Below are positions 2,007 to 31,906 of a stretch of DNA of 38,858 bases, piece by piece (positions within the stretch are counted from its first letter, which is position 1; the number at the start of each line of letters is the position of its first letter). A model generated the notes under the pieces. That model searched no databases. It was given only the letters and a program-made list of their open reading frames with translations, and had not been told where the DNA came from. The translations under genes and the position numbers were made by a program. This DNA comes from a virus: the IMG/VR virus record IMGVR_UViG_3300048904_000120; one strand, written 5' to 3'.

Positions 2007-2290
2007 ACCGCCTCCAGTTGGTTAGCCATCAATCGCGCACGGCAAGCGTCTTGCATCGCCCGTAGCGTCTCCATCGCTCGAAACACTGGCGGCGTATCCT
2101 CGCGCGTGCTAAACCAAATGCAGCCCGATCTATCGCGGCGGCCGTTGCATTTCACCTTGCCGCTGGTTTCAAGTCGCGATAGTGCCTGGCGCACCTTCTG
2201 AGCCGTAATGTCGATGCTGTCGGCGATCTGCTGAACGGTGGCGCCCTCGGGCTGCGTGCTGAGGTAATCGCTGATGCGGGCTGGAATCAT
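2003..2290 (-). CDS. Small winged-helix DNA-binding protein (MarR/ArsR-like fold)
   Basis: 95 aa. ATVQQIADSIDITAQKVRQALSRLETSGKV is HTH plus wing-like. Translationally coupled on both sides. Confidence 0.6.
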   Translation of the reverse strand: MIPARISDYLSTQPEGATVQQIADSIDITAQKVRQALSRLETSGKVKCNGRRDRSGCIWFSTREDTPPVFRAMETLRAMQDACRARLMANQLEAV

Positions 2291-3084
2291 GCTGCCTCCG
2301 AATCAAGGCCGCCCACGTCGCGCGATGCTCGCCGGTGGCTCTCCCAATCAAACTTCACGCTTACGCCAGATTCGCTCAGGCGGTCCATGAATCGCTCGCC
2401 GAGATACGCCTTCAGGCTCGGTACGTCGAGGTTCGTCAGCAGGATGGTGGGCTTGCAATTGAGCCTGCGCGCCTCTAGCAGCTCGTGCAGCGTGCGTTGC
2501 TCGTCATCCGTTCCGCGCTGCAATCCGATCTCGTCGAGGATCATCAAATCGATCGACTCGAACTGGCGAAGCATCTGTTCTTCGGTAAGCTCGGAGTTGC
2601 GCGACCATGTTCCGCGAATCTTGGTAAACAAGCGTGCGGTGGACGTAAAGTAGACGGTGTGACCGCGTGCCATCAGGTAGTTAGCAGCGGCGCATGCAAG
2701 GTGCGATTTACCGGTACCAACTTTGCCGATTCCTACAAGGACAGTGCCGCACCTGAGATGGTCTTGGAATGTCCGGGCGAAATTCTTGAACCTTGACCAT
2801 GCAAGGTCTTGCGGGGGCGTCTTTTTTTCGTAGTTATCGAAAGTCCGATCGCGGAACAGCGCCGGGATACCCGCTTGCTCAAGACGCGCCTCGACCTTCG
2901 CCTGACGCTCTGCGCGCTCCTTCTCTGCTTTAGCGGCGGCCTCGCGGTCTTCGGCGTTTTGCTCGCACACGGGGCAGCGATCAGCTCGGATAACCCGCTC
3001 GCCAACTGAAAACGAGCGGATCGAGAACTTTCCATGTTCTGCGCACGAGCCGATTTGCACGGTTTGGCTGATCGAAACGTTCAT
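2287..3084 (-). CDS. DnaC/IstB-like AAA+ helicase loader with an N-terminal zinc ribbon
   Basis: Walker A GIGKVGTGKSH, Walker B DLMILDEIG, N-terminal C..H...CPVC. It sits downstream of the initiator gene. Confidence 0.8.
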   Translation of the reverse strand: MNVSISQTVQIGSCAEHGKFSIRSFSVGERVIRADRCPVCEQNAEDREAAAKAEKERAERQAKVEARLEQAGIPALFRDRTFDNYEKKTPPQDLAWSRFKNFARTFQDHLRCGTVLVGIGKVGTGKSHLACAAANYLMARGHTVYFTSTARLFTKIRGTWSRNSELTEEQMLRQFESIDLMILDEIGLQRGTDDEQRTLHELLEARRLNCKPTILLTNLDVPSLKAYLGERFMDRLSESGVSVKFDWESHRRASRDVGGLDSEAA

Positions 3085-3602
3085 TTTTGCTCTCCGTGAT
3101 TAGCGAAATCTCCGTGCAATTTTTCGCGAAGTTCAATAGCTGCGTGTTTTGCGTCTTCGATGTTTTTGAACGTGCCGCCATTCACCATGCGGCCGTCGTG
3201 ACTGACCCGAGCACACCATGCGTTCGAGGCCTTATGCCAAAAGACCCCTTTTATGCCGCTAGTGTTGTCGCGCCGCATCTTCGCGTTTCTCACGTTTTCA
3301 GTGTTGGAGCACACGCGAAGGTTCGCGATTCTGTTGTCAGATCGAACGCCGTTGATGTGGTCGATATGGCCTTCCGGCCACGCCCCATTGGCGAGCAGCC
3401 ATGCGACACGGTGCGCTTGGTAGAGCTTTCGATCTATCTTGACCTTCAGGTATCCCTGAATGCCGATCGATCCGGCAACCTGCCCGGCTTTGATGCAGTT
3501 GGACTTCGCTACCTTCCATCGGAGTTCGCCGGTTTCTGCGTCGTAGCTAAGTTGTTCCGAGACGTACTCGCGTGTTAAGTGCGTGGTCGTTAAATCATTC
3601 AT
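3081..3602 (-). CDS. HNH homing-type endonuclease with an AP2 DNA-binding domain
   Basis: HRVAWLLANGAWPEGHIDHINGVRSDNRIANLRVCSNTEN followed by GVFWHKASNAWCARV. The ATG at 3602 follows SD AAGGAA. Confidence 0.8.
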   Translation of the reverse strand: MNDLTTTHLTREYVSEQLSYDAETGELRWKVAKSNCIKAGQVAGSIGIQGYLKVKIDRKLYQAHRVAWLLANGAWPEGHIDHINGVRSDNRIANLRVCSNTENVRNAKMRRDNTSGIKGVFWHKASNAWCARVSHDGRMVNGGTFKNIEDAKHAAIELREKLHGDFANHGEQK

Positions 3603-3638
3603 CGCGGTTCCTTGTTTGTTTTTGTACAACACTTCTGG

Positions 3639-4352
3639 TTAGAAAAGTGGCGTGCTGTAGTCCATGTCAGCAAGCGATTTTGTTTTACTAGATGATACCC
3701 CAGATGTTTTAGAGTTGGGCGGAAAAATACCCTGATATCCGTTCGCAATCGAGTGATTGATCGCCGCCTTCAGATCGACCCCTTGCGCGCGGTAGGCTGC
3801 GAGCTGCTCGATTGTCTTCAGTGCGCTGCTAGGCGTCATCGGCTTTTTCTTCTCTCTGCGGTGTTGCTCCCATTCGGCCCATAACTCAGGATCGAGCCAT
3901 TCAGGTAAGGAGGGGCGCGCAGCGACCTTTTCAGTCTTTGCTGCCTTTCTCAGTTCTTTCTTAGAATCAGTACTTACTAGTGGTTGATTACCCAAATCTG
4001 GGTTTCCCTGATCTGGATTACCCAAATCTGGGTTTCCTGAATTTGGGTCGGAGGGCGTCGCGCGCTCGCGAACAAGGTAGTCGAGCGTCCCGTCTGCGTG
4101 CTTCTTGCGTCTCAGATAGCCGACATTCAAGAGTTCGTTAATGATCGCGTAGACGGCCGTTTTGCCAGACTGGCGCTGTCCTGCGCCTGCCGTGCAGTTG
4201 ATCAGTGCCTCAATGCTGACGCGCCAATGATCGGGCTTGCCAAGCAGGAAGATGAGCATCCCGCGAGCGGCCCACGACAGGCGCTCATCTTCACTGATCC
4301 GCTTGTCGAGAATGTAGAAGTTGCTGTCCGGGCGCGGCTCTCGGATGATCAT
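3639..4352 (-). CDS. Replication initiator (lambda O / DnaD-like, N-terminal wHTH) with an internal GNPD(L/Q) repeat linker
   Basis: Track ORF 3639-4511 trimmed to the ATG at 4352, which overlaps the upstream stop (ATGA). It is followed by a loader gene and contains the iterons at 3986-4050. Confidence 0.7.
   Translation of the reverse strand: MIIREPRPDSNFYILDKRISEDERLSWAARGMLIFLLGKPDHWRVSIEALINCTAGAGQRQSGKTAVYAIINELLNVGYLRRKKHADGTLDYLVRERATPSDPNSGNPDLGNPDQGNPDLGNQPLVSTDSKKELRKAAKTEKVAARPSLPEWLDPELWAEWEQHRREKKKPMTPSSALKTIEQLAAYRAQGVDLKAAINHSIANGYQGIFPPNSKTSGVSSSKTKSLADMDYSTPLF
3986..4050. repeat. In-gene iteron array (candidate lytic origin)
   Basis: The 22-bp GATTACCCAAATCTGGGTTTCC occurs perfectly repeated at 3986-4007 and 4016-4037. 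Overall there are four 15-bp units (3991-4050), with an AT-richer stretch at 3961-3990. Confidence 0.6.
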
Positions 4353-4828
4353 GCTGCGTTCCTCTTGAGGACGGAAAACGACTTCTTGCCCTTGGTGCTG
4401 TTGCAGGATCGGCAAAGCGTCTGCAGGTTTTCGAGCGTCGTCGGGCCGCCGTCGCGCTCGGAAATGATATGGTCGCAGCAGAGATCGACGTGCGAGCTGC
4501 ACATGACGCACCGGTACGCATCACGCTCGAAAACAGACTTCGCAAGGGTTCGGCTGATTTTCGCCTTCTGGTAGACGTCCCCCCGGCTTCTTGAGCGGAT
4601 GGCGCCGGAGGCGTACATCTGTTCCTCGATTCGGCGCATCATTTCACCGCCATTCCCGTCGCCCCACTCGCGCATAAACGGGGCAGCCTCTTCGATGGCC
4701 TTTTTGATTCGCCGATCAAACTTGGCGCTCGCGGCCTTCGCCGCCTTCTCGTGGGCGCGCGCCGCAGCCTTCTGCTCCGGTGTCATCCACCATTCGTAGT
4801 CGATGTCCAAGATGCTGTTCACGCTCAC
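4349..4828 (-). CDS. HNH endonuclease
   Basis: C-terminal CVMCSSHVDLCCDHIISERDGGPTTLENLQTLCRSCNSTKG. The GTG start overlaps the cro-like stop. Confidence 0.85.
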   Translation of the reverse strand: MSVNSILDIDYEWWMTPEQKAAARAHEKAAKAASAKFDRRIKKAIEEAAPFMREWGDGNGGEMMRRIEEQMYASGAIRSRSRGDVYQKAKISRTLAKSVFERDAYRCVMCSSHVDLCCDHIISERDGGPTTLENLQTLCRSCNSTKGKKSFSVLKRNAA

Positions 4829-5337: not shown

Positions 5338-5787
5338 ATGACCGTAGAAACAATCGAGCGCATCCGCCAACGAAACTTCCTTTGGCTGTTTGACCAATTC
5401 AAAGAAGACTTTCGAAAGGATTGGCCGAACGAGCCAGATCGCGGAATGCTCAGACGATTTGCCGACCGTCTCGGCATGGATCAGATCTACGTGTCGCAGA
5501 TCAAGAACGGTGGGAAGAAGGAAGAGGGCGGAAACGGCCGCATCATCGGCCCGCAGCTCGCGCGTCGCATAGAGAGCGCTCTGAACCTCCCGGAAGGCTG
5601 GCTCGATACAAACCATCAGGCGCCGGCAGAAGTCCAGGATGAGGGTCTGGCAGACGTTCTAAACACTGTCCGCGGCCTCTACGAACATTCACCTGAAGCA
5701 ACGCGCGCCGCACTGATAAAGGTGATGGGCGCTATCGTCACAGGAAAGCCGATAGAGACGATCGTAGAGAAAGAGCACGCAAAATAA
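5338..5787 (+). CDS. CI-like repressor (HTH; no obvious S24 autopeptidase domain)
   Basis: 149 aa. HTH-like LRRFADRLGMDQIYVSQIKNG. Divergent from the cro-like gene. Confidence 0.6.
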   Translation: MTVETIERIRQRNFLWLFDQFKEDFRKDWPNEPDRGMLRRFADRLGMDQIYVSQIKNGGKKEEGGNGRIIGPQLARRIESALNLPEGWLDTNHQAPAEVQDEGLADVLNTVRGLYEHSPEATRAALIKVMGAIVTGKPIETIVEKEHAK

Positions 5788-5802
5788 GCTGCTCGCAAAC
5801 GG

Positions 5803-5830
5803 TTGACAGCGGGGCAGACAAAAGTATTAC
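5803..5830 (+). promoter_or_regulatory. Sigma70-like promoter TTGACA-16-TATTAC downstream of the repressor gene
   Basis: The -35 is at 5803-5808 and the -10 at 5825-5830. The -10 overlaps a GTATTA half-site (5824-5829) and TTACAGCGCT (5827-5836). Confidence 0.5.
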
Positions 5831-5994
5831 AGCGCTAACAATTTTCGTCCTACCAAAGTAATTTTGACTTCTAATACAGCGAAAATGCAACAAAGCAATA
5901 CAAGGATTTGTTGCGTACCCTTATGATATGCCTTATCGTTACGTGGACGCTTAGTTGAAAGCGCCTCCCCAAACGATCAGAAAGGCGGGTAATT

Positions 5995-6177
5995 ATGACC
6001 GGTGCGCAAGTTGTCGCTACGAGTGGTACGAATGTTTTGCCGGTGTTCGAGGGCGAGTTATCGCCTGAGGCTTGGAGTGACAACGAATTCATCAATGCGG
6101 CCTGCGCCGCCATCCCCGTTCACATGCGTCAGGAGGCGATTGCCGCACTTCTGTCGATCGTTGGGCGAACGCACTAA
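5995..6177 (+). CDS. Hypothetical 60-aa protein in the immunity island
   Basis: Track ORF with a modest SD (AAAGGCGGG), downstream of promoter 5803-5830. Confidence 0.5.
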   Translation: MTGAQVVATSGTNVLPVFEGELSPEAWSDNEFINAACAAIPVHMRQEAIAALLSIVGRTH

Positions 6178-6194
6178 TACGCGCAAAGTTTTGG

Positions 6195-6224
6195 TTGACA
6201 CAACTTGGACTGTTTTGGTAAGAT
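6195..6224 (+). promoter_or_regulatory. Strong sigma70-like promoter TTGACA-18-TAAGAT with no ORF behind it
   Basis: The -35 is at 6195-6200 and the -10 at 6219-6224. The next ~140 nt carry only hairpins and two intrinsic terminators. Confidence 0.6.
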
Positions 6225-6293
6225 GTGTCTACCGTGACGTCATTGCGACTTGGGTCGTATTCATCACCGGTTCCTTCTGCTGCAAGGCAGTTT

Positions 6294-6323
6294 CCGCTCC
6301 CCGTCTGGGTTGAGCGGCTTTTT
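6294..6323 (+). terminator. Intrinsic terminator 1
   Basis: CCGCTCCCC-GTCT-GGG(TT)GAGCGG followed by CTTTTT. Confidence 0.55.
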
Positions 6324-6332
6324 ACAAAGTAA

Positions 6333-6369
6333 GCCGTCGCTAGAGCAATCAGCGGCGGCTTTTTCGTTT
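6333..6369 (+). terminator. Intrinsic terminator 2
   Basis: GCCGTCGCT-9 nt-AGCGGCGGC (one G.U pair) followed by TTTTTCGTTTT. Confidence 0.65.
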
Positions 6370-6506
6370 TCGCCGGCGCTCCCCACGCCTGACTGCCGGG
6401 AAAGTTCGGCGTATGGATCGGTAGACCGCTAAGGAGGCGGGGCAGCCTGTAAAGCTGTCGCTTCGGCCAGCTAGGATCGTTACCTAGTCGATCCACCAAT
6501 TTCTAT

Positions 6507-6585
6507 TCCGCGAAACCCGAGCAAGGTGCATGGGCTTGACTGTTAATCAATGGCTAGCTGAGTTCGATTCTCAGGCGCGGAGCCA
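6507..6585 (+). tRNA. tRNA-like element (Asn-type anticodon loop CUGUUAA, encoded CCA) with a non-canonical cloverleaf
   Basis: T arm CTGAG-TTCGATT-CTCAG. Acceptor TCCGCG(A)/(G)CGCGGA plus G plus CCA. D arm CCCG-11 nt-TGGG. Deviations: A at position 8, a 7-66 mismatch, a 4-bp anticodon stem with a C-T mismatch, and a 6-nt variable loop. Confidence 0.4.
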
Positions 6586-6610
6586 AACAAAAAGCCCGCA
6601 TCGCGCGGGC
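6585..6610 (-). terminator. Intrinsic terminator for the leftward small-ORF cassette
   Basis: GCCCGC-ATCGC-GCGGGC (6594-6610). On the minus strand it is followed by TTTTTGTTT. Confidence 0.65.
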
Positions 6611-6615
6611 CTTAG

Positions 6616-6735
6616 TCATTCATCATCCGGATCTTCCTCCGGTTCTTCGTCATCCTCGCCATCTGTCTCGTTGTAGTAGGCGTCTGCCTCCTGATCGAGC
6701 CAGAAATCGTGGCTGCACTTAAACCGCGCGTTCAC
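6616..6735 (-). CDS. Possible 39-aa protein with an extremely acidic tail
   Basis: The GTG at 6735 lies 6 nt after SD GGAGG. Sequence VNARFKCSHDFWLDQEADAYYNETDGEDDEEPEEDPDDE. Too short for the ORF track. Confidence 0.35.
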   Translation of the reverse strand: MNARFKCSHDFWLDQEADAYYNETDGEDDEEPEEDPDDE

Positions 6736-6895
6736 TGCGCGCCTCCAGTGCGTTAGAGAGGATCTTCAGCATGGCGCGCGCTTCGCCGATTGCGCATGCG
6801 CTCTCGATGGTGATGTGACCGGACTGCGCCAGCTCGCGCAGCTTGTCGATCGTCTCGGCTGCTTGCTTCAGGACGTAATTTTCATAGTTGCTCAT
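6719..6895 (-). CDS. Hypothetical 58-aa helical protein (below the track cutoff)
   Basis: The ATG at 6895 lies 7 nt after GGAG. Sequence MSNYENYVLKQAAETIDKLRELAQSGHITIESACAIGEARAMLKILSNALEARSERAV. It has its own promoter and terminator. Confidence 0.55.
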   Translation of the reverse strand: MSNYENYVLKQAAETIDKLRELAQSGHITIESACAIGEARAMLKILSNALEARSERAV

Positions 6896-6922
6896 GGTTG
6901 GTCTCCGCGTTTGCGTTCAGAT

Positions 6923-6951
6923 ATAATACGTCGCAAGTATTAGAACATCAA
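6923..6951 (-). promoter_or_regulatory. Sigma70-like promoter TTGATG-17-TATTAT with a perfect dyad TAATAC-N7-GTATTA (6924-6942)
   Basis: The -35 is at 6946-6951 and the -10 at 6923-6928 (minus strand). Paralogous to promoter 390-418. Confidence 0.55.
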
Positions 6952-6956
6952 GTTTT

Positions 6957-6966
6957 GTTTGCAAAC
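6957..6966. promoter_or_regulatory. Perfect 10-bp palindrome GTTTGCAAAC between the divergent promoters
   Basis: Seen directly. It lies between the -35 of the leftward promoter and the -35 of the rightward one. Confidence 0.4.
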
Positions 6967-6985
6967 TGTCGACGCCGTGGATGCT

Positions 6986-7014
6986 TTGCGCGTTCGCTCG
7001 CCCACATTTAATAC
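6986..7014 (+). promoter_or_regulatory. Candidate promoter of the rightward block, TTGCGC-17-TAATAC
   Basis: The -35 is at 6986-6991 and the -10 at 7009-7014. A 10/12 dyad TAATAC-N7-GACTTA at 7009-7027 overlaps the -10. Confidence 0.4.
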
Positions 7015-7038
7015 ATTCGCAGACTTATAGGAGCCGCC

Positions 7039-7284
7039 ATGTCTCTCGTATCGCTTGTCGTTGTCGCGCTTGTGTTGCTGCTGTCTGCGCTTGGCGTGCT
7101 GGCTGTTGCGATGCTCGCAATGGACTTCGCGGAGGACGCCGAAGAAATGGCGCTGTGCCTGGATCAAGAGAGCGCGCACGGGGCGTTACTGGGCAGCGTA
7201 GAGAGCGAGAAGCATCGACTGATTGCTGGAGCGATGAAGGCTGATCGCGAGGCGGCACTAAAACGTATCGGGGGCGATGCTTGA
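7039..7284 (+). CDS. Small membrane protein (N-terminal TM helix)
   Basis: SD GGAG. N-terminus LVSLVVVALVLLLSALGVLAVAMLA. The stop overlaps the next start (TGATG). Confidence 0.6.
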   Translation: MSLVSLVVVALVLLLSALGVLAVAMLAMDFAEDAEEMALCLDQESAHGALLGSVESEKHRLIAGAMKADREAALKRIGGDA

Positions 7285-8009
7285 TGGTTGACTTACGACT
7301 TGGCGATTGCCTGGAGGTCATGCAGACGATTGCCGACAAGTCGGTTGATCTGATCTTGTGCGATTTGCCCTACGGCACGACCCGTAACAAGTGGGATTCG
7401 GTCATTCCGCTAGAGCAGTTGTGGTCGCATTACAACCGGATCGCGAAGCCGAATGCTGCTGTGGTGCTGACGGCGCAGGCGCCTTTCGACAAGGTGCTCG
7501 GCGCATCGAACGTCGCCGCGCTCCGGTACGAGTGGATATGGCGCAAAGAGGCGGGGACAGGGTTTCTCAACGCCAAGCGCGCGCCACTGAAAGACCATGA
7601 AAACGTGCTCGTTTTCTATCGCGAGTCGCCGACGTACAACCCTCAGATGCGAACGGGGTTCAAGCCGTATAAGTGCGCACAAGGCAAGACCAAAAGCGCG
7701 AACTACGGTGCGCAATCTGGCGCCGTGACGGAAAGCAGCGGCGAGCGTTACCCGCTAACCGTGCTGGACTTCCCTCGCGACAAGAACAAGGTCCATCCCA
7801 CGCAGAAGCCGGTCGCGCTGTTCGAATACCTGATTCGCACGTACACGAACGAAGGCGACACGGTGCTCGATAACTGCATGGGATCGGGCACTACCGGCGT
7901 TGCCGCAGCTCGCACCGGCCGCAAGTTCATCGGCATCGAGCGCGATCCGGGCTACTTCGCCATCGCGACGAATCGCATTGCTGGCGCTCAGTCATTGGAG
8001 GCTGCTTGA
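7284..8009 (+). CDS. DNA methyltransferase (beta-class N6-adenine / N4-cytosine type)
   Basis: Motif IV DLPYG (DLILCDLPYGTT) lies upstream of motif I NCMGSGTTGVAAARTGRKFIGIE. Confidence 0.9.
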   Translation: MVDLRLGDCLEVMQTIADKSVDLILCDLPYGTTRNKWDSVIPLEQLWSHYNRIAKPNAAVVLTAQAPFDKVLGASNVAALRYEWIWRKEAGTGFLNAKRAPLKDHENVLVFYRESPTYNPQMRTGFKPYKCAQGKTKSANYGAQSGAVTESSGERYPLTVLDFPRDKNKVHPTQKPVALFEYLIRTYTNEGDTVLDNCMGSGTTGVAAARTGRKFIGIERDPGYFAIATNRIAGAQSLEAA

Positions 8010-9767: not shown

Positions 9768-10079
9768 ATGGCTAAAGGTGTGAAAACCGGCGGCCGAGTC
9801 AGAGGAACGCCGAACAAGATCACGGCCGATATCCGTGCGCTCGCACAGAACCACACGGAGACGGCAATCGCAATGCTGGCCACGATCTTGACGACGAGCG
9901 AGAACGATTCGGCCCGCATCGCGGCGGCAAAAGAGCTGCTTGACCGCGGATATGGCAAGTCCACGCAGGCGGTTGAAATGTCCGGCAAGGACGGCGACCC
10001 GATCGCCATTACCAAGATCGAGCGCGTAATTGTCGATACTCCAAATTCAAACACCGCGGGTGTTCGTCCCGCTACTTGA
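9768..10079 (+). CDS. Putative terminase small subunit
   Basis: 103 aa, with the basic N-terminus KGVKTGGRVRGTPNK. It lies immediately upstream of terL and overlaps it. Confidence 0.5.
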   Translation: MAKGVKTGGRVRGTPNKITADIRALAQNHTETAIAMLATILTTSENDSARIAAAKELLDRGYGKSTQAVEMSGKDGDPIAITKIERVIVDTPNSNTAGVRPAT

Positions 10080-11265
10080 GCCTGCGCGCTACAAGGGCGG
10101 TCACGGCGGCCGCGGCTCGGGCAAGTCGCATTTCTTCGGTGAAATGCTGATCGAGCGCTCGGTGATGGAAAAGACGGACGCTGTATGTGTTCGTGAGGTG
10201 CAGAAGTCGCTCAAGCAATCGGTTAAGAAACTGCTCGAAGGCAAGATCGAGGCGTTGAACGCTGGCGCTTACTTCGATGTGCAGGACGCACAGATCAAGT
10301 CGACGCACGGCGGGCTGATTATGTTCCAGGGTATGCAGAACCATACCGCGGAGACGATCAAGTCGCTGGAAGGCTTCGATATCGCGTGGGTCGAGGAAGC
10401 GCAGTCGCTTAGTCAACGCTCGCTCGATCTGTTGCGCCCGACTATTCGTAAGCCGGGATCGGAACTCTGGTTCTCGTGGAATCCGAGCGCGGCAACAGAT
10501 CCGGTCGACGCCTTACTTCGTTGCGCTGAGCCGCCGCCTGGCTCGGTCATCGTCGAGGCGAACTACATGGACAATCCGTGGCTCCCTGATGAGCTGCGCA
10601 TTGAAATGGAGTACGACAAGCGCCGCGACCCGGACAAGTACGCGCATATCTGGCTTGGCAAGTACCAGCAGAACAGCGAGGCGCGAGTATTCAAGAACTG
10701 GCGCATCGAGGAATTCGAACGGCCGGCGGGCACCATTCATCGATTGGGTGCGGACTGGGGATTCTCGGTCGATCCGTCCGTGCTGATTCGATGCGATATC
10801 GAAGGCAACCTTCTGTACGTGGATTATGAAGCGTACATGGTCGGCTGCGAGATCGTGAACTTGCCGGAACTGTTCATGAGCGTTCCCGACGCTGAGAAGT
10901 GGCCGATCACGGCTGACTCTGCGCGGCCGGAAACGATCAGCCACATGCAGAAGAACGGCTTTCCGAAGATTCGGCCGGCAATCAAGGGCGCGAAGTCGCT
11001 GGAAGAGGGCGTTGAATTCCTGAAGTCGTTCGACATCATTGTTCATCCGCGCTGCAAGCATCTGATCGATGAACTCTCGCTCTACAAGTACAAGGAAGAC
11101 CCGTTGACGGGCGCCATCCTGCCGATTCTCGAAGACAAGGATAACCACGTCATCGACGCGCTGCGGTACGCCTGTGAGGGCGCACGACGCGCTGGCAAGG
11201 CTCCGAAACCCTCTAAACCTGTAGTCCGCCGCACCGTTGTTGGTAACGGCGGCTGGATGGGCTAG
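10030..11265 (+). CDS. terL: Terminase large subunit (PBSX/Terminase_3-like)
   Basis: Walker A GGRGSGKSH near the N-terminus. Its size and its position before the portal gene fit. The TTG start is taken from the track. Confidence 0.85.
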   Translation: MSILQIQTPRVFVPLLEPARYKGGHGGRGSGKSHFFGEMLIERSVMEKTDAVCVREVQKSLKQSVKKLLEGKIEALNAGAYFDVQDAQIKSTHGGLIMFQGMQNHTAETIKSLEGFDIAWVEEAQSLSQRSLDLLRPTIRKPGSELWFSWNPSAATDPVDALLRCAEPPPGSVIVEANYMDNPWLPDELRIEMEYDKRRDPDKYAHIWLGKYQQNSEARVFKNWRIEEFERPAGTIHRLGADWGFSVDPSVLIRCDIEGNLLYVDYEAYMVGCEIVNLPELFMSVPDAEKWPITADSARPETISHMQKNGFPKIRPAIKGAKSLEEGVEFLKSFDIIVHPRCKHLIDELSLYKYKEDPLTGAILPILEDKDNHVIDALRYACEGARRAGKAPKPSKPVVRRTVVGNGGWMG

Positions 11266-11510: not shown

Positions 11511-11573
11511 TAGATGCCTCTTAGTTAGATCGTCAGATTGCCACTGGCAGGAACGACAGTCAACAGGATTAAT

Positions 11574-13691
11574 ATGGCTAGGAAGCCGAAAGAAGACCCC
11601 AAAGCGAAGATTGTCGCCGAGGCGAAAGAGCGTTTCGCGCGATGCGAGGAAGCGGAAAGCGATTTCCGCAAGCGCTTCGTCGAAGACCTGAAGTTTGCCA
11701 ATGGCGACGCCGACAACGGCTGGCAATGGCCCGATCAGATCCGCAATGCACGCGAAGGCGATCAGCGGCCATGTCTGACGATCAACAAGACACGTCAGCA
11801 CAATCTCCAGATCATCAACGATGCGAAGCAGAACAAGCCGTCGGTCAAGACGCTCCCGGTCGACGGCGACGCGGACATTGAAATCGCGAAGATTCTTGAC
11901 GGCATTATTCGTCACATCGAATACAACAGCCACGCCGAGATTGTGTATGACACGGCGACTGAGTTCGCGGTACAGGGTGGCATTGGTTACTGGCGCGTTG
12001 TCACAGAGTACGCGCATGACGGCTCTTTCGATCAGGAAATCTTCCTCCGCCGCGTCAAGAACCCGCTAACGGTCTATCTTGATCCGGATATCGAATCCGC
12101 GGACGGCTCAGACGCGAAGTACGGCTTCGTGTTCGAGCAGATGACGAAGGCTGAATTCGAGGCGACGTATCCTGGCGAGAAGGCTGCCGATGTGCAATTC
12201 GGTGATGACTCGTCGAAGGGCGATTGGATCGGCAAAGACAAGATCCGCGTCTGCGAGTACTTCCGCAAGACGAGCAAGAGCGACACGCTTGTTGCGCATC
12301 CAGAGCTTGGCGCGGTCATGCTGTCCGATCTGCCGCCCGATGAGCAGAAGAGGGTTGAGGGCGACGCTTCAATCCAGCGTCGCACGGTCAGCACGCCGCA
12401 GATGACCTGGTATCTGCTCGCCGGCGACACGATCATCGACGAAAAGCCGTGGCCCGGTCGGTATATCCCGATTGTGCGCGTGATCGGCGAAGAGATCGTC
12501 ATCGATGGCAAGGTCGAGCGCAAGGGCCACACGCGCAGCATGAAAGATGCGCAGCGCATGTACAACTACATGTCGTCGGCTCAAGTCGAGTACATCGCGC
12601 TTCAGACGAAGACGCCATTCGTCGGCCCGATTGAGGCGTTCGAGGGCTTCGAATCCGAGTGGGCTAACGCAAACAAAGACAACCTTCCGTATCTGCCTTA
12701 CAACGGCCTGCGCGATGACGGGCAGCAGATCGAGCGTCCGCAGCGCGAGCAGCCGCCTGTAGGCGCTTCTGCGTATCTGCAAGGCATGCAGACCGCGCAG
12801 CAAGAGCTAATGATGGCGTCCGGCCAGTATCAAGAGCAGTTCGGGCAGCAATCGAACGCTCAAGCCGGCGTTGCGATTCAGGCTCGGCAGCGTCAAGGCG
12901 ATCGCGCGACGTATCACTTCATCGACAACGTTGCTCGCTCGATCCGCTATACCGGCCGCGTGCTGATCGACCTTATCCCGAAGATTTACGACACGGCGCG
13001 AGTCGTGCGGATCTTGGGCGAGGACGGTACAGAGACATTCGCGCAGTTCGATCCGAGCCAGCCGCATCCGGTTTCAACGCCTGATGGACAGCCGGCGCCG
13101 CCGCAGGACCAGCGCGACCATCTGAAGGACGTGCAACTGATCTACAACCCAGGCATCGGCCGCTATGACGTGACCGTCGAGGTTGGCCCGAACTACGAGA
13201 CGCGCAGACAGGAAGCATTCAACGCGCTGACGCAGATCATGAGCCAGGACCAGGAGTTGATGAAGGTTGCCGGCGACCTGCTGTTCAAGGCCGCTGACTT
13301 CCCGATGGCTGACGAGGTTGCCGAGCGTCTGCACCGCACGATCCCGCCTGCGATCTTGGGCGAAGGTCCGTCGCCTGAGATGCAGGACGCCACGCAGAAG
13401 ATGCAGCACATGGGCCAGATGATCGAGCACTTGACGCAGCAGCTTCAGCAGGCGCAGCAGGGCAAGGAGCAGCAGGACACGAACATCAAGGCGTATGACG
13501 CCGAGACGAAGCGCCTGCAAGCACTCGGTCAGCCGCTTGATCCGCAAGTCGTTGCGCATGTGGCTACGCAAGTCGTCATGCAGATGATGCAGACCGGCTC
13601 GCCAGAAGGTAGTCCACCGCCTGACCCATCGCAACAGATGCAACAACCCCCGAACCCGCCGAGTGCGGGTTTTTCTTTGCCCGCTCAATAA
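11574..13691 (+). CDS. Portal protein
   Basis: About 705 aa, located after terL. The ATG at 11574 follows AGGA. Q-rich C-terminal tail. Confidence 0.85.
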   Translation: MARKPKEDPKAKIVAEAKERFARCEEAESDFRKRFVEDLKFANGDADNGWQWPDQIRNAREGDQRPCLTINKTRQHNLQIINDAKQNKPSVKTLPVDGDADIEIAKILDGIIRHIEYNSHAEIVYDTATEFAVQGGIGYWRVVTEYAHDGSFDQEIFLRRVKNPLTVYLDPDIESADGSDAKYGFVFEQMTKAEFEATYPGEKAADVQFGDDSSKGDWIGKDKIRVCEYFRKTSKSDTLVAHPELGAVMLSDLPPDEQKRVEGDASIQRRTVSTPQMTWYLLAGDTIIDEKPWPGRYIPIVRVIGEEIVIDGKVERKGHTRSMKDAQRMYNYMSSAQVEYIALQTKTPFVGPIEAFEGFESEWANANKDNLPYLPYNGLRDDGQQIERPQREQPPVGASAYLQGMQTAQQELMMASGQYQEQFGQQSNAQAGVAIQARQRQGDRATYHFIDNVARSIRYTGRVLIDLIPKIYDTARVVRILGEDGTETFAQFDPSQPHPVSTPDGQPAPPQDQRDHLKDVQLIYNPGIGRYDVTVEVGPNYETRRQEAFNALTQIMSQDQELMKVAGDLLFKAADFPMADEVAERLHRTIPPAILGEGPSPEMQDATQKMQHMGQMIEHLTQQLQQAQQGKEQQDTNIKAYDAETKRLQALGQPLDPQVVAHVATQVVMQMMQTGSPEGSPPPDPSQQMQQPPNPPSAGFSLPAQ

Positions 13692-14055: not shown

Positions 14056-14106
14056 ATTTCCCGTACCGGTGCGGCATCACCGGGCTAAATCCTCTTGGAC
14101 TCGTCC

Positions 14107-14832
14107 ATGCAAATCGAAGAAAACGCATTGCCGCAAGAAAACGTCACGCCTACGGAGTTGGAACAGGCGCAACAGCCCGCTGAAGTCGTCTCTGAACCGG
14201 GCGCAGAGCAAACCGCATCGGAAGTCGATCAGCAGTCGCAAGAGCAGCAAAAGCCCAAAAACGATTGGGTTCAACGACGCATCGACCAACTGACGCGCGA
14301 GAAACACGAAGAGAAACGCCAGCGAGAAGCACTCGAAGCGCGATTGCGCGAGCTTCAGCCGCAGCAGGAGACGACTGGGCAGCCGATGACGGCCGAACAG
14401 ATCCGATCCGAAGCCAAGCGACTGATCGAGCAAGAGCGATTCGACGAGGCTTGCAACAAGGTATTCGACGCGGGCAAAGGTGACTTTGGAGCGGAGTGGG
14501 ATTCGTCCCTGCGCACGTTCCAAATGCTCGGCGGCGCATCGCCCGACTTTCTGCAAGCCATCACGTCGATGGATCACGGTCACAAGGTGCTTCATGCACT
14601 CGGCCAAGACCCGGAGACAGCTGAACGCGTGCTTTCCCTTCCCCCGTTGCGAATGGCTCTCGAACTGGCTCGCCTAGAAGCGAAGGTCAGCGCGAGTGCA
14701 CCTACCCCGAAACCTGTTTCCAAAGCGCCCGCACCGATTACTCCCGTCGGCGGGAAGTCTGCGCCTGTCGAGCCGGCTGAGTTCGCCTCGACCGCGGAAT
14801 ACATCGCTTGGAAGAAACGAAACAAAGGCTGA
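14107..14832 (+). CDS. Scaffolding protein
   Basis: Acidic, Q/E-rich helical protein directly upstream of the coat gene. The start could be TTG 14095 or ATG 14107. Confidence 0.7.
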   Translation: MQIEENALPQENVTPTELEQAQQPAEVVSEPGAEQTASEVDQQSQEQQKPKNDWVQRRIDQLTREKHEEKRQREALEARLRELQPQQETTGQPMTAEQIRSEAKRLIEQERFDEACNKVFDAGKGDFGAEWDSSLRTFQMLGGASPDFLQAITSMDHGHKVLHALGQDPETAERVLSLPPLRMALELARLEAKVSASAPTPKPVSKAPAPITPVGGKSAPVEPAEFASTAEYIAWKKRNKG

Positions 14833-14840
14833 TTACTTAG

Positions 14841-16049
14841 ATGGCAAATACGCTTCTTACCCCGACCAAGATCCTCGACGAATCGCTGATGATCTTGGAG
14901 AACAACCTCACGTTCTCGTCGCGCATCAACCGCGAATACAGCAAGGAATTCGCCGTCAGCGGCGCGAAGATCGGTTCGACCGTCAACGCACGCAAGCCGA
15001 ACCGCTTCGTCGGCACGACCGGCCCGAACCTGAACATCGAAAACGTCAACGAAACGTCGGTGCCGATCTCGCTCACGACGCAGTTCCACGTTGACTTCAC
15101 GTTCAGTTCGCAAGAACTGACGTTGATCGTCGACGAGTTCGCGGATCGCTACCTGAAGCCGGCAATGGCGACCATCGCCAATAAGATCGACTTCGACGGC
15201 TTGGCGCTTGCCGGCAACGTGGCAAACAGCATCGGCACGGTTGGCACGACCCCGAACGACATTTCGGTTCTTCTGAACGCGGGCGTCAAGCTCGACAACG
15301 AAGCAGCACCGCGCGATGGTCAGCGCACTGTCGTGTGGGATCCGGCAACCAACGGCTCGATGGTTAAGGCTGCCGCTGGCCTGTTCAACCCGTCGAACAA
15401 GATCGGCGCGCAGTACGAATCGGGCATCTTCTCGCCGTCCGGCCTCGGCTTCGATATCGGCATGGATCAGAACGTGAACGTCTTCACGACTGGTTCGCGC
15501 GGCAACGGCACGGTTTCCGGCGCTGGCCAAACCGGCTCGACGCTGACCGTTACCGGCCTCGGCGCTGGCGCAACGGTGGCGAAGGGTGACGTGTTCACCA
15601 TTGCCGGCGTATATGGCGTCAACCCGCAGAACCGACAGACGACCGGCGTGCTTCGCCAGTTCGTCGTGACCGCTCCGGCCACGGCAGACGGTTCGGGCAA
15701 CGCAACGCTGTCGATTTTCCCGGCGATCAACACCGCAGCAAGCAACCAGCAGTACCAGACGGTTTCGGCTGGCCCTGCGAACGCTGCCGCTGTGACGTGG
15801 GATGTTGCAGCGTCGACGCAATACAGCGCGAACCTTGGCTATCACAAGGATGCATTCACGCTCGTTACCGCCGACCTGGAAGACGTGTCGCAGTACGGCG
15901 CATGGGGCGCCCGCCGCATGCACAAGGGCATTTCGATGCGTATCTCGCGCCAGTACGCGATCGGCACTGACACGGTTCCTTGCCGAATCGACGTCTTGTA
16001 CGGCTACGCCGCGATCTACCCGGAACTCGCGACGAAGATCATCCGGTAA
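14841..16049 (+). CDS. Major capsid protein (P22 gp5-type coat)
   Basis: 402 aa. Its position, plus blocks resembling the P22 coat (KGDVFTIAGVYGVNP..., C-terminal CRIDVLYGYAAIYPE). Confidence 0.85.
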   Translation: MANTLLTPTKILDESLMILENNLTFSSRINREYSKEFAVSGAKIGSTVNARKPNRFVGTTGPNLNIENVNETSVPISLTTQFHVDFTFSSQELTLIVDEFADRYLKPAMATIANKIDFDGLALAGNVANSIGTVGTTPNDISVLLNAGVKLDNEAAPRDGQRTVVWDPATNGSMVKAAAGLFNPSNKIGAQYESGIFSPSGLGFDIGMDQNVNVFTTGSRGNGTVSGAGQTGSTLTVTGLGAGATVAKGDVFTIAGVYGVNPQNRQTTGVLRQFVVTAPATADGSGNATLSIFPAINTAASNQQYQTVSAGPANAAAVTWDVAASTQYSANLGYHKDAFTLVTADLEDVSQYGAWGARRMHKGISMRISRQYAIGTDTVPCRIDVLYGYAAIYPELATKIIR

Positions 16050-16071
16050 TGCCGCTGATCCAGCAATCGAA

Positions 16072-16093
16072 CCCCTCTTCGGAGGGGTTTTTT
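16072..16093 (+). terminator. Intrinsic terminator after the coat gene
   Basis: CCCCTC-TTCG-GAGGGG followed by TTTTTT. Confidence 0.8.
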
Positions 16094-16108
16094 CATTCTG
16101 ACGAGCCG

Positions 16109-16438
16109 ATGCCATACGAAAAATTCCCCGCATGGGCGACTGGTCCCGATGGTGCGCAACGCATCGTCAACAGCCAGGACGAGCTAGACGCGCTCTCTGG
16201 CTTCACGGTGCCTGATTACGTGCCGCCCGTGCCGCGCGAGCAAAAGCCCGATTTCGTCGCCTATCCCAAGTGGATCGGAGATCAGCTTGTGCAGAACGCG
16301 GAAGAAGAATCTGCGCTGCTCGGCTCTGACGACGTGGACACGCGCGAAGCCCTGTTGCAGATCGCAGCAGAGAAGGGCGTGAAGATCGACAAACGCTGGT
16401 CCGATGACAAGATTCGGGCCGCTCTTGAGGCTGTTTGA
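16109..16438 (+). CDS. Hypothetical 109-aa protein
   Basis: Track ORF 15980-16438 trimmed to the first ATG after the terminator. Confidence 0.55.
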   Translation: MPYEKFPAWATGPDGAQRIVNSQDELDALSGFTVPDYVPPVPREQKPDFVAYPKWIGDQLVQNAEEESALLGSDDVDTREALLQIAAEKGVKIDKRWSDDKIRAALEAV

Positions 16439-17151
16439 TGACCACTGCGACCGACCTCATCACGCTCGCGCTGAAGGACATAGGCGCACTCGGTATCGGG
16501 CAGGCGGCAAGCGCAGAAGATACCGCCGATGCACTTGCTACGCTGAACATGATGCTTGGTCAGTGGCAAGGCGAGCGCCTCTCTGTCTATCACCTGGTCG
16601 ACACCGCGATTCCGTCGACCGGGAAACAGACGTACACGGTCGGGACTGGCGGCGATTTCAACGTTCAGCGGCCGATCAAGATCAACGCAGCATATGCGCG
16701 GCTCAATGCGGGCAGCTCGACGCCGATCGATTATCCGGTTCGGATTATCGAGTCGATGGAGGACTATTCGCGCCTGGCATTGAAGGGGCTGCAATCGTTC
16801 CCTGCGTGGGCCTATTACGACCCGGCTTTCCCGCTTGGAAACCTGACGTATTACCCGATCCCGGACAGCACGTTTCAGCTTCACATCGTCACGATGGAGG
16901 CGCTTCCGCAGTTCACGGCGACAGGGCAAGTCATCAACCTGCCGCCTGAGTACATGGCTGCGATTCGCTACAACCTTGGCCTGTATCTCGCGCCGTCGTA
17001 TCAGATCGAGCCGCAGCGTTCGCTTATTGGTCTCGCGCTGAATGCCAAGCGTGTTGTGAAGCGAATGAACAGCCAGATCCCGTCCATGACGATGCCTCGC
17101 GGCCTCGGCTCGAAGCAGCGTTACAACATCTACAGCGGCTCTAATTACTGA
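16438..17151 (+). CDS. Head-to-tail adaptor (P22 gp4-like N-terminus)
   Basis: DLITLALKDIGALGIGQAASAEDTADALATLNMMLGQW resembles the gp4 N-terminal motif. TGATG coupling. Confidence 0.65.
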   Translation: MTTATDLITLALKDIGALGIGQAASAEDTADALATLNMMLGQWQGERLSVYHLVDTAIPSTGKQTYTVGTGGDFNVQRPIKINAAYARLNAGSSTPIDYPVRIIESMEDYSRLALKGLQSFPAWAYYDPAFPLGNLTYYPIPDSTFQLHIVTMEALPQFTATGQVINLPPEYMAAIRYNLGLYLAPSYQIEPQRSLIGLALNAKRVVKRMNSQIPSMTMPRGLGSKQRYNIYSGSNY

Positions 17152-18575: not shown

Positions 18576-19174
18576 GCACGCCGACAAACTTTCCAGACGT
18601 CGGCGTGCCGCTGGTCGACCCGAAGACGGGCCGGCTTTCGATGGTCTGGTTCCAGCTTCTGATCGCGCTTTTCAATCGAACTGGCGGCACATCGGGAGAT
18701 AGCGGATCGACTCAGGAACTGTCGGAAGTGGCTCAACAGATCGCCTCGCTGGTGCCGGTCGATTACGGGGCCGCGCTGCGTATTGCTGACGTCGAGGCGG
18801 CGCTTTCTGTGCTTGCTGGCGCGGTGACGCAGAGCGAGCCTGATTCGTTCGTCCCGACGCACGGCATACAGGACGCGCCGGATCTTCATGCAGTCGCTAC
18901 GCAAACGGCGAACGGCTTCATGTCGGGTGCGGACAAGGCGAAGCTCGACGCGATGACGGCGACGGTTGAAGATCGATTCGTCTCGGGAACTGGTTTCACG
19001 CCTGGGACAACGACGAGCCTGACGCTATCGAAGGCATACGCGAACGCCGCGGCCGTCACGGTGCATTTCGACGGCGTATTCCAGGGCAGCGACCAATACA
19101 CGATCGCCGGAACGACGATCACGTTCACATCTGCGATCCCTGTCGGCACGCAGACAGTCTATGCACGAGGGTAA
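18572..19174 (+). CDS. Tail fibre / needle-like structural protein
   Basis: ATGA coupling. Fibre-type motif GFMSGADKAKLD. The C-terminal ~70 aa are homologous to residues ~97-165 of tailspike 1. Confidence 0.6.
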   Translation: MSTPTNFPDVGVPLVDPKTGRLSMVWFQLLIALFNRTGGTSGDSGSTQELSEVAQQIASLVPVDYGAALRIADVEAALSVLAGAVTQSEPDSFVPTHGIQDAPDLHAVATQTANGFMSGADKAKLDAMTATVEDRFVSGTGFTPGTTTSLTLSKAYANAAAVTVHFDGVFQGSDQYTIAGTTITFTSAIPVGTQTVYARG

Positions 19175-19177
19175 GGC

Positions 19178-19516
19178 ATGACAACAACATATAAAGAAAT
19201 GGTGAAGGGCGCGACGCTGACCGGTGCCGCGTCTAGCCTGTACACCGCAGCAACCGCTACGTCGGCATCTATTCAGGCGGCAAGCGCGAACAACCCGACT
19301 GGCGGCGTCGTGACGCTCAACGTCTACAAGGTTCCGGCTGGCCGCTCCGCTGACGGGACGACGCGCATCGCGTCAAAGAACATAGGCGCCGGCGCGACCG
19401 CGCAGTTCCCTGAGCTGGTCAATCACAAACTCGAACCCGGCACGCAGCTTTACGCGGACGGTAACGGCTGCTCGATCAGCATAAGCGGGATCGAATACGT
19501 AAAGGATAGCGCTTGA
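19178..19516 (+). CDS. Hypothetical virion-module protein (112 aa)
   Basis: Track ORF within the late operon. Confidence 0.55.
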   Translation: MTTTYKEMVKGATLTGAASSLYTAATATSASIQAASANNPTGGVVTLNVYKVPAGRSADGTTRIASKNIGAGATAQFPELVNHKLEPGTQLYADGNGCSISISGIEYVKDSA

Positions 19517-20547: not shown

Positions 20548-20549
20548 CT

Positions 20550-25085: not shown

Positions 25086-25098
25086 ATTGAGGCAATAC

Positions 25099-27138: not shown

Positions 27139-27157
27139 ATTATCGAGGTTAAATACA

Positions 27158-31838: not shown

Positions 31839-31906
31839 GTTCCTTCCCCTGTTATTGTGCGCAAATCCTAGTTCATACTTGCGCAAACATCAATGGGGGA
31901 AGTGAC

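Follow-up and report, generated by a model that had tools for sequence, protein, structure and literature searches.

A probable tRNA-Asn(GUU) gene of a re-modelled viral lineage in the immunity region of a P22-like phage

Can a cloverleaf that breaks several rules of transfer RNA (tRNA) architecture still be a working gene? The question is raised by a 79-nt element at positions 6507-6585 of the IMG/VR virus record IMGVR_UViG_3300048904_000120, a P22-like genome of 38,858 nt (38.9 kb; 58% G+C) that we refer to, at its full length, as the window. The initial annotation of this locus offered three explanations for the element: an odd but functional phage tRNA for asparagine (tRNA-Asn), a relic phage attachment site (attP) copied from a host tRNA, or a handle for the RNase P and CCA processing of a regulatory RNA. 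Direct reading bore out its description of the parts, namely the T arm, a 6-bp acceptor stem followed by G-CCA, a D arm with GG and the anticodon loop CUGUUAA. It also bore out four deviations from the canonical form: A at position 8, a mismatch between positions 7 and 66 (7:66), an anticodon stem of only 4 bp and a 6-nt variable loop. The first explanation is now strongly supported by the conservation of these deviations, the covariation of the stems, the identity bases and the place that related elements take as the Asn gene of tRNA arrays. We consider it highly probable (about 0.85) that the element is a functional tRNA-Asn(GUU) gene, predicted to read the codons AAC and AAU, and that it comes from a re-modelled lineage restricted to viruses.

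A covarying family of viral tRNA-Asn genes

Standard searches recognize the element poorly. ARAGORN made no call at its default stringency; relaxed to -ps80, it called a tRNA-Asn(gtt) of 79 nt with the coordinates exactly 6507-6585. The ARAGORN check suggested in the initial annotation was, in other words, silent in one setting and positive in the other. No Rfam model reached its gathering score on the element; below that threshold, the tRNA-clan model that came closest was tRNA-Sec, with 21.6 bits versus a gathering score of 47. This slightly better fit to tRNA-Sec (RF01852) than to the other clan models comes from the longer D arm and the unusual geometry of the acceptor and T stems. The features that set apart tRNA-Sec and allo-tRNAs are, however, absent from the element: its anticodon is GUU where UCA or another recoding anticodon would be expected, its variable region is a 6-nt loop instead of a long arm, and its acceptor stem of 6 bp and a mismatch, set on a 5-bp T stem, does not follow the 8/5 or 9/4 arrangement. 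Among the canonical features of the tRNA clan (CL00001), the element lacks U8, the 7-bp acceptor stem, the 5-bp anticodon stem with residue 26 and the variable loop of 4-5 nt. It retains a 7-nt anticodon loop (CTGTTAA) with U33 and a purine at position 37, the T loop TTCGATT, AAGG in the D loop and the G-CCA end; these loop and 3'-end traits are invariant, or nearly so, across the family to which the element belongs.

That family is large. In two sensitive blastn searches the whole element was matched at 78-84% identity in 96-98 GenBank phage records, which comprised 61 Acinetobacter phages, 34 Pseudomonas phages, one cyanophage and, in the first search only, two Salmonella phages. Several of the matched records annotate a tRNA-Asn (for example TAC1, with 79 nt, Konradin and Apostate) and many carry no annotation. 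An exact scan of IMG/VR for the 17-mer of the D arm (CCGAGCAAGGTGCATGG) matched at least 120 viral contigs, two of the matches not being this tRNA, and the family is present in at least 118 viral contigs as well as in Acinetobacter phages. Our sample for comparison held 119 elements, two GenBank loci (L001 and L002) included, with 63 distinct sequences; all 119 are 79 nt long and carry the anticodon GTT. ARAGORN at default called 26 of the 119 copies and missed the other 93. A strongly covarying viral tRNA-Asn architecture thus mostly escapes default ARAGORN, and phages seemingly without a tRNA-Asn often have one.

The window gene is of a kind already annotated as tRNA-Asn in Acinetobacter phages. 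Genes of the same 79-nt family are annotated in TAC1 (MK170160, 7599-7677) and in vB_AbaM_Konradin, Apostate, Berthold, Liucustia and P1, and unannotated copies are present in KARL-1, AM101, ZZ1 and others. These copies share with the window an identical or nearly identical D arm, A8 A9, the 7:66 mismatch, the unpaired 27:43, the variable loop GGYUAG, GUU, G73 and CCA, whereas their stem sequences differ from those of the window by compensatory changes. The setting differs too: the Acinetobacter copies belong to multi-tRNA arrays of large lytic phages (100-170 kb), whereas the window copy is one of only two tRNA genes that form a cassette in an immunity region, and its phage is P22-like, 39 kb in size and of the temperate type. 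Many Acinetobacter phage records have the 79-nt Asn gene unannotated or overlaid by a hypothetical coding sequence.

The 63 distinct sequences provide the evidence for a maintained structure. Across their alignment 90% of the cells are paired, double changes occur in 15 pairs, and there are 245 compensatory cells, compared with 70 +/- 7.5 in shuffles and 17-39 when the partners are slid by 1-3 columns. Covariation supports all four helices (acceptor, D, anticodon and T). Positions 7:66 are nevertheless unpaired in 61 of the 63 sequences, nearly always as purine.purine, and 27:43 in all 63; A8 is likewise found in 63 of 63. Because 7:66 and 27:43 stay open while the stems covary, these apparent defects are selected traits, and the four deviations are fixed features of the family and not signs of decay. 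The parts needed for decoding are just as constant: GTT and G73 in 63 of 63, C74 without exception, an encoded CCA in 60 and U1-A72 in 60. At all 37 invariant and 16 nearly invariant columns of this alignment (A2) the window element agrees with the family, and none of its pairs is broken. Every signature position is present in it, namely A8 A9, the D arm YCCR-AGCWAGGYGCA-KGGR, the C after the D stem, GGNUAG, GUU and G73. In a further alignment (A1) the D arm, A8 A9, the 7:66 mismatch, the unpaired 27:43 and the 6-nt variable loop were common to the sequences and the stems differed by paired changes.

The lineage can thus be described by a set of fixed traits: a 6-bp acceptor stem with a purine.purine 7:66, A8 A9, the lack of a 27:43 pair, a 6-nt GGYUAG variable loop, a standard T arm, G73 and an encoded CCA. 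Its D arm, CCCG-AGCAAGGUGCA-UGGG, is of a type seen in class-II tRNAs, and in the window (CCCGAGC..GG...A.GGG) resembles the D arm of class-II tRNA-Tyr (tyrosine); the 5' sequence of E. coli tRNA-Tyr is GGTGGGGTTCCCGAGCGGCCAAAGGGA, as taken from a probe printed in PMC11555353. Since the first set of sequences had been chosen by the D arm, we ran a second scan anchored on the anticodon, the variable loop and the T loop. The 84 distinct sequences that it gave still had the D arm AA-YCC-R-AGC-W-AGG-Y-GCA-K-GGR-C, with co-changes at 10:25, 12:23 and 13:22.

To score the window element against its family, we used a covariance model (R1, from alignment A4) of 61 family members, from which the window and its two closest relatives had been left out. 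R1 matched the element over its full length (1-79) with 104.7 bits (E = 1.3e-31). Other family members scored 95-105 bits (ZZ1, 95 bits), and other tRNA-Asn genes far less: 51 bits for KPP10/PAK_P3, 47 for the canonical gene of Pseudomonas aeruginosa and 21 for phage T5. The T5 tRNA-Asn and tRNA-Tyr, which we tried as family members, were rejected as canonical (21 and 19 bits).

These results bear on the suspicion that a phage tRNA-Asn is decaying here into a pseudogene, or that the cloverleaf arose by chance. The failure of default ARAGORN and of the Rfam gathering threshold, together with four departures from the canonical form, would suit such an origin. However, the departures recur in 61-63 of 63 homologues whose stems all covary, the window copy preserves every invariant family position with its pairs intact, and it is 100% identical to the copy of a related contig (L066) despite diverged flanks. 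Decay or chance is, on these grounds, very improbable.

The family is also essentially viral. We searched the D-arm 17-mer in one genome per species from 185,579 bacterial and archaeal species (596 Gb) and obtained 40 matches, approximately the chance expectation. Four of the 40 were the tRNA-Asn itself, three of them in Burkholderia records and one in a gammaproteobacterial metagenome-assembled genome, all within tRNA arrays. The PLSDB plasmids yielded only the canonical P. aeruginosa tRNA-Asn, at 82% identity over 61 nt. About half of the sampled viral loci are dense arrays in which at least 15 tRNAs are called. One of them (L016) has ARAGORN calls for each of the other 19 amino acids and none for Asn, and the 79-nt element lies inside the array. 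The identity set of E. coli and bacterial tRNA-Asn (G34 U35 U36, G73 and U1-A72) is complete in the window element. The 5' leader is conserved as well, with U(-1) in 97% and A(-2) in 93% of 117 distinct copies, compared with 75% and 59% in 1843 other tRNAs of the same loci. This A(-2) U(-1) leader fits maturation by RNase P at the annotated 5' end.

A tRNA cassette in a variable slot

The initial annotation had described a lone tRNA-like element that lies 135 nt downstream of the terminators of a small RNA. The distance holds, as two hairpin-plus-T-run terminators end near 6370. The gap, however, contains an overlooked tRNA-Tyr(GUA) gene that ARAGORN calls at default, and the two tRNA genes form a cassette in a variable slot behind the immunity-region small RNA (Table 1). 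What had seemed a puzzling tRNA-like relic would become two ordinary functional parts. The tRNA-Tyr is non-canonical in its own way: it has a UAAGGAG D loop on a stem of 4-5 bp, a long variable arm, a discriminator A with an encoded CCA, and a T loop (AUCGUUA) with A54...U58 where T54...A58 is usual. At E values as high as 10, Rfam still matched nothing over 6415-6498. The signature pattern of this tRNA-Tyr occurs in at least 120 viral contigs of IMG/VR, and RNAalifold folded 75 distinct Tyr sequences into a class-II cloverleaf with compensatory changes in 22 of 23 pairs. The D loop UAAGGAG(G) resembles a Shine-Dalgarno sequence. One member of the Asn family (L095:4245-4323) has the T loop ATCGTTG, with the A54/U58 swap of the Tyr family, and the swap may be a recurrent trait of phage tRNAs.

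The Tyr and Asn families are largely independent of each other. Of about 270 sampled loci, only 5 contain members of both, and nowhere but in the window and L066 do the two genes stand side by side. We had considered them as an obligate pair (GUN anticodons with Q34, the targets of colicin-E5-type nucleases) and rejected this idea as a general rule because a joint "Q34-tRNA" logic is not general at such a rate of co-occurrence. Evasion of an E5-type nuclease is also unlikely, the anticodon loops being canonical.

How is the cassette transcribed? The sigma-70-like promoter in front of the small RNA is, as judged from its sequence, the probable source of the small-RNA transcript and, via read-through, of the tRNAs. 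A candidate promoter of the cassette itself (CTGACT-17 nt-TATGGA, approximately 6390-6418) was rejected, as its match to the consensus is poor (7 of 12) and transcription from it would begin within the tRNA. The cassette has no promoter of its own, and in the relatives terminator 2 is separated from the tRNA by a mere 8-20 nt; transcription therefore most likely reaches the cassette through read-through from the promoter at 6195-6224. The small-RNA segment matches no Rfam family. Its covarying stems are kept in four relatives (L066, L207, L191 and L025) and in 28 further contigs. The sub-threshold Rfam matches to His-leader, trpB and isrK at 6261-6370 and 6589-6648 are merely terminator hairpins.

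The slot has defined edges. On its left side, the two pre-slot hairpins are kept in relatives with or without a tRNA behind them, as the comparison with the empty-slot loci L326, L329, L345 and L350 showed. On its right side, a terminator scan recovered, at 6613-6591, the minus-strand terminator that the initial annotation had placed against the CCA end; it begins a few nt past this end, and the junction AAACAAAAAGCC.. after the CCA is identical for every cargo type read in the relatives. From 6371 to 6615 the window and L066 are 100% identical, with flanks at 81-97%. The four relatives named above had been found through their tRNAs and were hence a biased sample. We therefore collected relatives by terminator 1 of the small RNA alone, which gave 32 contigs plus the window (33 loci), with promoter, small RNA, both terminators and pre-slot hairpins conserved. 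Their slots hold non-canonical Tyr, non-canonical Asn, both, other RNAs or nothing at all; about half of these relatives lack both a tRNA and a recognised tRNA-like RNA there. The varied contents mark the slot as a hot spot of tRNAs and tRNA-like RNAs, and the empty-slot relatives show that the small RNA needs no tRNA behind it. This range of cargo (empty, Tyr, Asn, both, other tRNA-like RNAs) amounts to a natural experiment on small-RNA cargo in a temperate phage. At the gathering score Rfam found nothing in eight related loci, the cargos with two T-arm-like hairpins and the 190-nt insert likewise matched no family, and about 19 small-RNA loci, including those with the CCA-ended tRNA-like RNA and the 190-nt insert, gave no tRNA call even at lowered ARAGORN stringency.

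Two of the other cargos are themselves unusual. The third type of tRNA-Asn, in L328, combines a 7-bp acceptor stem and a 4-bp D stem with an unpaired 27:43, and Rfam missed it at the gathering score. The 84-nt CCA-ended RNA has an acceptor-like stem with G.U pairs and the T arm GGCGG-TTCGATT-CCGTT; a long hairpin substitutes for its D and anticodon arms, and it lacks a 7-nt anticodon loop.

Could the tRNAs serve the small RNA, as a module for its processing or stability, and not mainly translation? They follow directly behind it with no promoter of their own, RNase P cleavage at the 5' end of a tRNA would trim the upstream transcript, and the slots of some relatives (L330, L332, L336, L342 and L343) hold CCA-ended RNAs that lack a normal anticodon loop. 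The arrangement also recalls c4 of P1/P7 and CI of P4, in which a tRNA-shaped RNase P substrate is found beside an immunity-region small RNA. In c4 and CI, the tRNA-like fold belongs to the precursor of the regulator itself and lacks a decoding identity. The window differs from them in that its tRNA is separable, swappable and fully equipped, and in that the small RNA stands alone in many relatives. Moreover, the small RNA ends in two intrinsic terminators of its own, at least four of the 33 small-RNA loci (L326, L329, L345 and L350) have the pre-slot hairpins only, and others carry different cargos. The same tRNA-Asn, with invariant anticodon and identity bases, is found in well over 100 phages that have no such small RNA, mostly in arrays. 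These terminators and empty slots refute the handle of the initial annotation as a requirement of the small RNA, and we consider a processing module an unlikely role in general. Co-transcription followed by release of the tRNAs through RNase P is the likely relationship.

The variability of the slot also speaks to the attP proposal, by which the element would stem from a host tRNA-Asn, its 3' part having been copied and left behind in an integrase-mediated insertion. Many temperate phages integrate into tRNA genes and carry a tRNA 3' end; the encoded CCA and the temperate type of the immunity region would agree with such a history. However, the element is a complete cloverleaf with full-length homology to its family and its most family-specific part is the 5' half, with the D arm; R1 scores it at more than twice the value of the canonical cellular tRNA-Asn (104.7 versus 47 bits). 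Relatives have a Tyr gene, other RNAs or nothing at the same junction. The initial annotation was also right about the lack of an integrase: we found no integrase or recombinase domain in the scanned open reading frames (ORFs) of at least 150 amino acids (aa; Pfam, PHROGs), and the phage has a ParA-type ATPase instead. No prophage copy of the phage came to light, the genome scan having been one for the D-arm signature. An attP relic is scarcely credible in view of these findings, and the element is better read as a full tRNA-Asn gene.

Table 1. Features of the window and contents of the cargo slot in those related loci whose slot was read
Feature	Position or locus	Strand	Basis or remark
tRNA-Asn(GUU) gene, 79 nt, non-canonical phage type	6507-6585	+	direct reading, ARAGORN -ps80, covariance model R1, family covariation
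Acceptor stem of tRNA-Asn, TCCGCG/CGCGGA, 6 bp	6507-6512/6576-6581	+	direct reading
7:66 A.G mismatch of tRNA-Asn	6513/6575	+	direct reading
A8 A9 of tRNA-Asn	6514-6515	+	direct reading
D stem of tRNA-Asn, CCCG/TGGG, 4 bp	6516-6519/6531-6534	+	direct reading
D loop of tRNA-Asn, AGCAAGGTGCA, GG inside	6520-6530	+	direct reading
Unpaired C after D stem of tRNA-Asn	6535	+	direct reading
Anticodon stem of tRNA-Asn, TTGA/TCAA, 4 bp	6536-6539/6547-6550	+	direct reading
Anticodon GTT of tRNA-Asn, in loop CTGTTAA	6542-6544	+	direct reading
Unpaired T of tRNA-Asn	6551	+	direct reading
Variable loop of tRNA-Asn, GGCTAG, 6 nt	6552-6557	+	direct reading
T arm of tRNA-Asn, CTGAG-TTCGATT-CTCAG	6558-6574	+	direct reading
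Discriminator G; CCA of tRNA-Asn	6582; 6583-6585	+	direct reading
8-nt spacer ATTTCTAT, ending in A(-2) U(-1), the leader favoured before the Asn 5' end	6499-6506	+	between tRNA-Tyr and tRNA-Asn
tRNA-Tyr(GUA) gene, 84 nt, non-canonical phage type	6415-6498	+	ARAGORN default; 8 nt upstream of tRNA-Asn
Sigma-70-like promoter, TTGACA-18 nt-TAAGAT with TG	6195-6224	+	consensus scan 10/12; position kept in relatives (alignment A3)
Small-RNA segment, closed by two hairpin-plus-T-run terminators	6225-6370	+	sequence
Terminator 1, CCGCTC...GAGCGG-CTTTTT	6294-6323	+	sequence
Terminator 2, AAGCCGTCGCT...AGCGGCGGCTTTTT	6331-6370	+	sequence
Pre-slot segment, 44 nt, two short hairpins (loops CUCCCCA, GGAAAG)	6371-6414	+	left edge of cargo slot
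Hairpin GCCCGC..GCGGGC, intrinsic terminator of convergent minus-strand small ORFs	6591-6613	-	terminator scan; right edge of slot
Slot: nothing beyond pre-slot hairpins	L326, L329, L345, L350		
Slot: non-canonical Tyr	L191, L207, L347		
Slot: non-canonical Asn	L025		
Slot: Tyr + Asn	window, L066		
Slot: 76-nt third type of tRNA-Asn(GUU), A8 A9	L328		
Slot: 84-nt CCA-ended tRNA-like RNA without normal anticodon loop	L330, L332, L336, L342, L343		
Slot: ~140-nt element, two T-arm-like hairpins (GCCGGTTCGACTCCGGC, GCGGGTTCGACTCCCGC)	L327, L337, L338, L341, L344		
Slot: uncharacterised insert, ~190 nt	L331, L333, L334		
DnaC-like protein	2287-3084		
O-like replication initiator	3639-4511		
Repressor-like protein	5338-5787		
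Terminase	10030-11265		
P22-type portal	11538-13691		
Tailspikes	25087-28585	+	
ParA-type ATPase	31188-31886	-	

Proposed use of the tRNA and known counterparts

Once transcribed, the tRNA-Asn would be released by RNase P cleavage after the A(-2) U(-1) leader and trimmed at its 3' end to the encoded CCA. The host would then be expected to charge it through the Asn identity set, by asparaginyl-tRNA synthetase (AsnRS) or by a non-discriminating aspartyl-tRNA synthetase (AspRS) together with GatCAB, and the charged tRNA-Asn would enter translation. Two benefits to the phage can be proposed. The cassette could maintain the decoding of Asn (and Tyr) codons under tRNA-targeting defences that deplete or cleave host tRNAs; the re-modelled D arm and core would make the tRNA a poor substrate for such defences. 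Alternatively, it could provide an extra supply for the Asn-rich ejection and tailspike proteins. We place counter-defence slightly above supply as the most likely benefit, because supply alone leaves the conserved re-modelling unexplained. A virus-restricted tRNA with a rebuilt D arm and core and intact identity elements would be the product expected of counter-defence selection, and the window gene may therefore serve as a test case for the evasion of tRNA-targeting immunity. To our knowledge, this field has only a few examples so far, from T5.

The T5 tRNA-Asn(GUU) is the best functional analogue of the window gene. Variants of the T5 tRNA-Lys, tRNA-Thr and tRNA-Asn together neutralise the AriB nuclease of PARIS, whose inactive second subunit reads D-loop bases 16 and 17 and whose cleavage is impaired by U16C (PMC12409363). 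The counter-defence role is demonstrated for the T5 tRNA, with determinants that include D-loop position 16, and putative for the window gene. The architectures differ too, the T5 tRNA-Asn being a canonical cloverleaf (G1-C72, U8 and a 7-bp acceptor stem) with the low R1 score given above. A comparable role is known for tRNA-Tyr: a phage tRNA-Tyr from T5 or SP15 rescues T5-like phages from the retron-Eco7 effector PtuAB, which depletes the host tRNA-Tyr (PMC11555353). The rescue depended largely on promoter strength, and anticodon mutants of the SP15 tRNA-Tyr lost the phenotype (PMC11555353). The T5 and window genes are both phage tRNA-Tyr(GUA), but the T5 tRNA has a normal T loop (TTCGACT) and another D arm.

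The adjacency of Asn and Tyr genes has a counterpart in the Nankokuvirus phages KPP10 and PAK_P3, lytic myoviruses of 88 kb that carry a set of tRNA-Asn, tRNA-Tyr and tRNA-Gln, with Asn and Tyr side by side as in the window. Their tRNA-Asn also lacks U8 (G8 instead) and has the CAAGGUG D-loop core in common with the window. It differs in its 7-bp acceptor stem, 5-bp anticodon stem and 5-nt variable loop, and the R1 score of 51 bits marks it as related but distinct. These phages have the Asn, Tyr and Gln tRNAs only. The tRNA-Asn of PAK_P3 (L124, NC_022970, approximately 86082-86158) is unannotated; the gene at the homologous position in KPP10 (L125) is annotated. As for the short anticodon stem, stems of 4 bp that lack the 27:43 pair occur in 5.6% of bacterial tRNA genes and have been tied to relaxed wobble in a tRNA-Trp(CCA) that reads UGA (PMC13092985). 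In the window tRNA-Asn this feature is joined to several other fixed changes, and nothing suggests altered decoding.

A working tRNA-Asn need not be an instrument of defence. Plain supply of Asn and Tyr for the late proteins, as a compensation for codon or amino-acid usage, is the classical explanation of phage tRNAs (PMC10264068), and the window offers some indications for it. Asn makes up 4.5% of the predicted proteome of the window but 10.2, 7.5, 8.9 and 8.6% of the ejection and tailspike ORFs at 20532-21299, 21299-22783, 25087-27138 and 27158-28585 (all on the plus strand), and Tyr makes up 5.5-6.7% of the ORFs at 16435-18575. Supply does not explain, however, why the body of the tRNA was re-modelled, why it is conserved across phages of unrelated hosts or why it is nearly absent from cells, and close relatives with similar virion genes carry other cargo or none. 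As the whole benefit of the cassette, supply seems to us a possible but doubtful account.

The tRNA-shaped RNA could also be a decoy that titrates a host tRNA-targeting nuclease or modification enzyme and takes no part in decoding. Belukhina et al. (PMC12409363) raised the possibility that over-expressed viral tRNAs are competitive inhibitors of AriB, and an odd core might favour binding without cleavage. Yet a pure decoy would have no need of the strict GUU, G73, U1-A72 and CCA or of a T arm suited to EF-Tu and the ribosome, nor would it be the sole Asn gene in full tRNA arrays. We judge a non-decoding decoy quite improbable and retain the decoding tRNA-Asn as the preferred interpretation.

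Several points weigh against that interpretation or its counter-defence component. Expression, processing and charging of the tRNA-Asn are inferred. The cassette stands behind two good terminators with no recognisable promoter of its own, so that read-through has to be assumed. The A8 in place of the near-universal U8 and the missing 26/27:43 geometry could impair the L-shape. Positions 36-41 of the tRNA-Asn (U-A-A-U-C-A) are identical to the preferred AriB site in the E. coli tRNA-Lys. We had considered an escape from AriB through the sequence of the cleavage site and rejected it on this evidence; because the site is the preferred one, any resistance to AriB would have to reside in the tRNA body. 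The host is not known to carry a tRNA-targeting defence. The Tyr and Asn genes rarely share a locus (5 of about 270), so that a joint function would not be general, and the complete identity with L066 could stem from recent recombination and not from selection.

More tentatively, we suggest that the Asn and Tyr scaffolds spread horizontally among phages of many hosts because they may remain chargeable and able to decode while escaping host tRNA nucleases or modifying enzymes. In the phages studied here they would be traded as cassettes of a slot that also accepts anticodon-less, CCA-ended tRNA-like RNAs and, with most copies missed by tRNA finders, the tRNA repertoires of phages would be under-counted. 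Literature searches by keyword and by signature sequence turned up neither this combination of features nor its confinement to viruses nor the Tyr family with swapped A54/U58, although their coverage was partial and they are weak evidence of novelty at the level of the family. In full-text literature the signature sequences retrieved unrelated primers only.

Setting in the phage genome

The recognised genes of the P22-like window are listed in Table 1, and the combination of a ParA-type ATPase and a repressor-like gene with no detected integrase may indicate a plasmid-prophage lifestyle. Megablast of the region 5500-7500 against GenBank phages gave no match, and PADLOC detected no phage-borne tRNA-targeting defence among ten unassigned ORFs. 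The coat and scaffold genes were not identified in the virion block around 14077-20472. Within this plus-strand block there are minus-strand ORFs of 176, 513 and 340 aa (14077-16133 and 19450-20472) without family matches, which may be spurious. The minus strand also encodes three HNH endonucleases (3081-3632, 4349-4828 and 34697-35608), of which one carries a fused AP2 domain.

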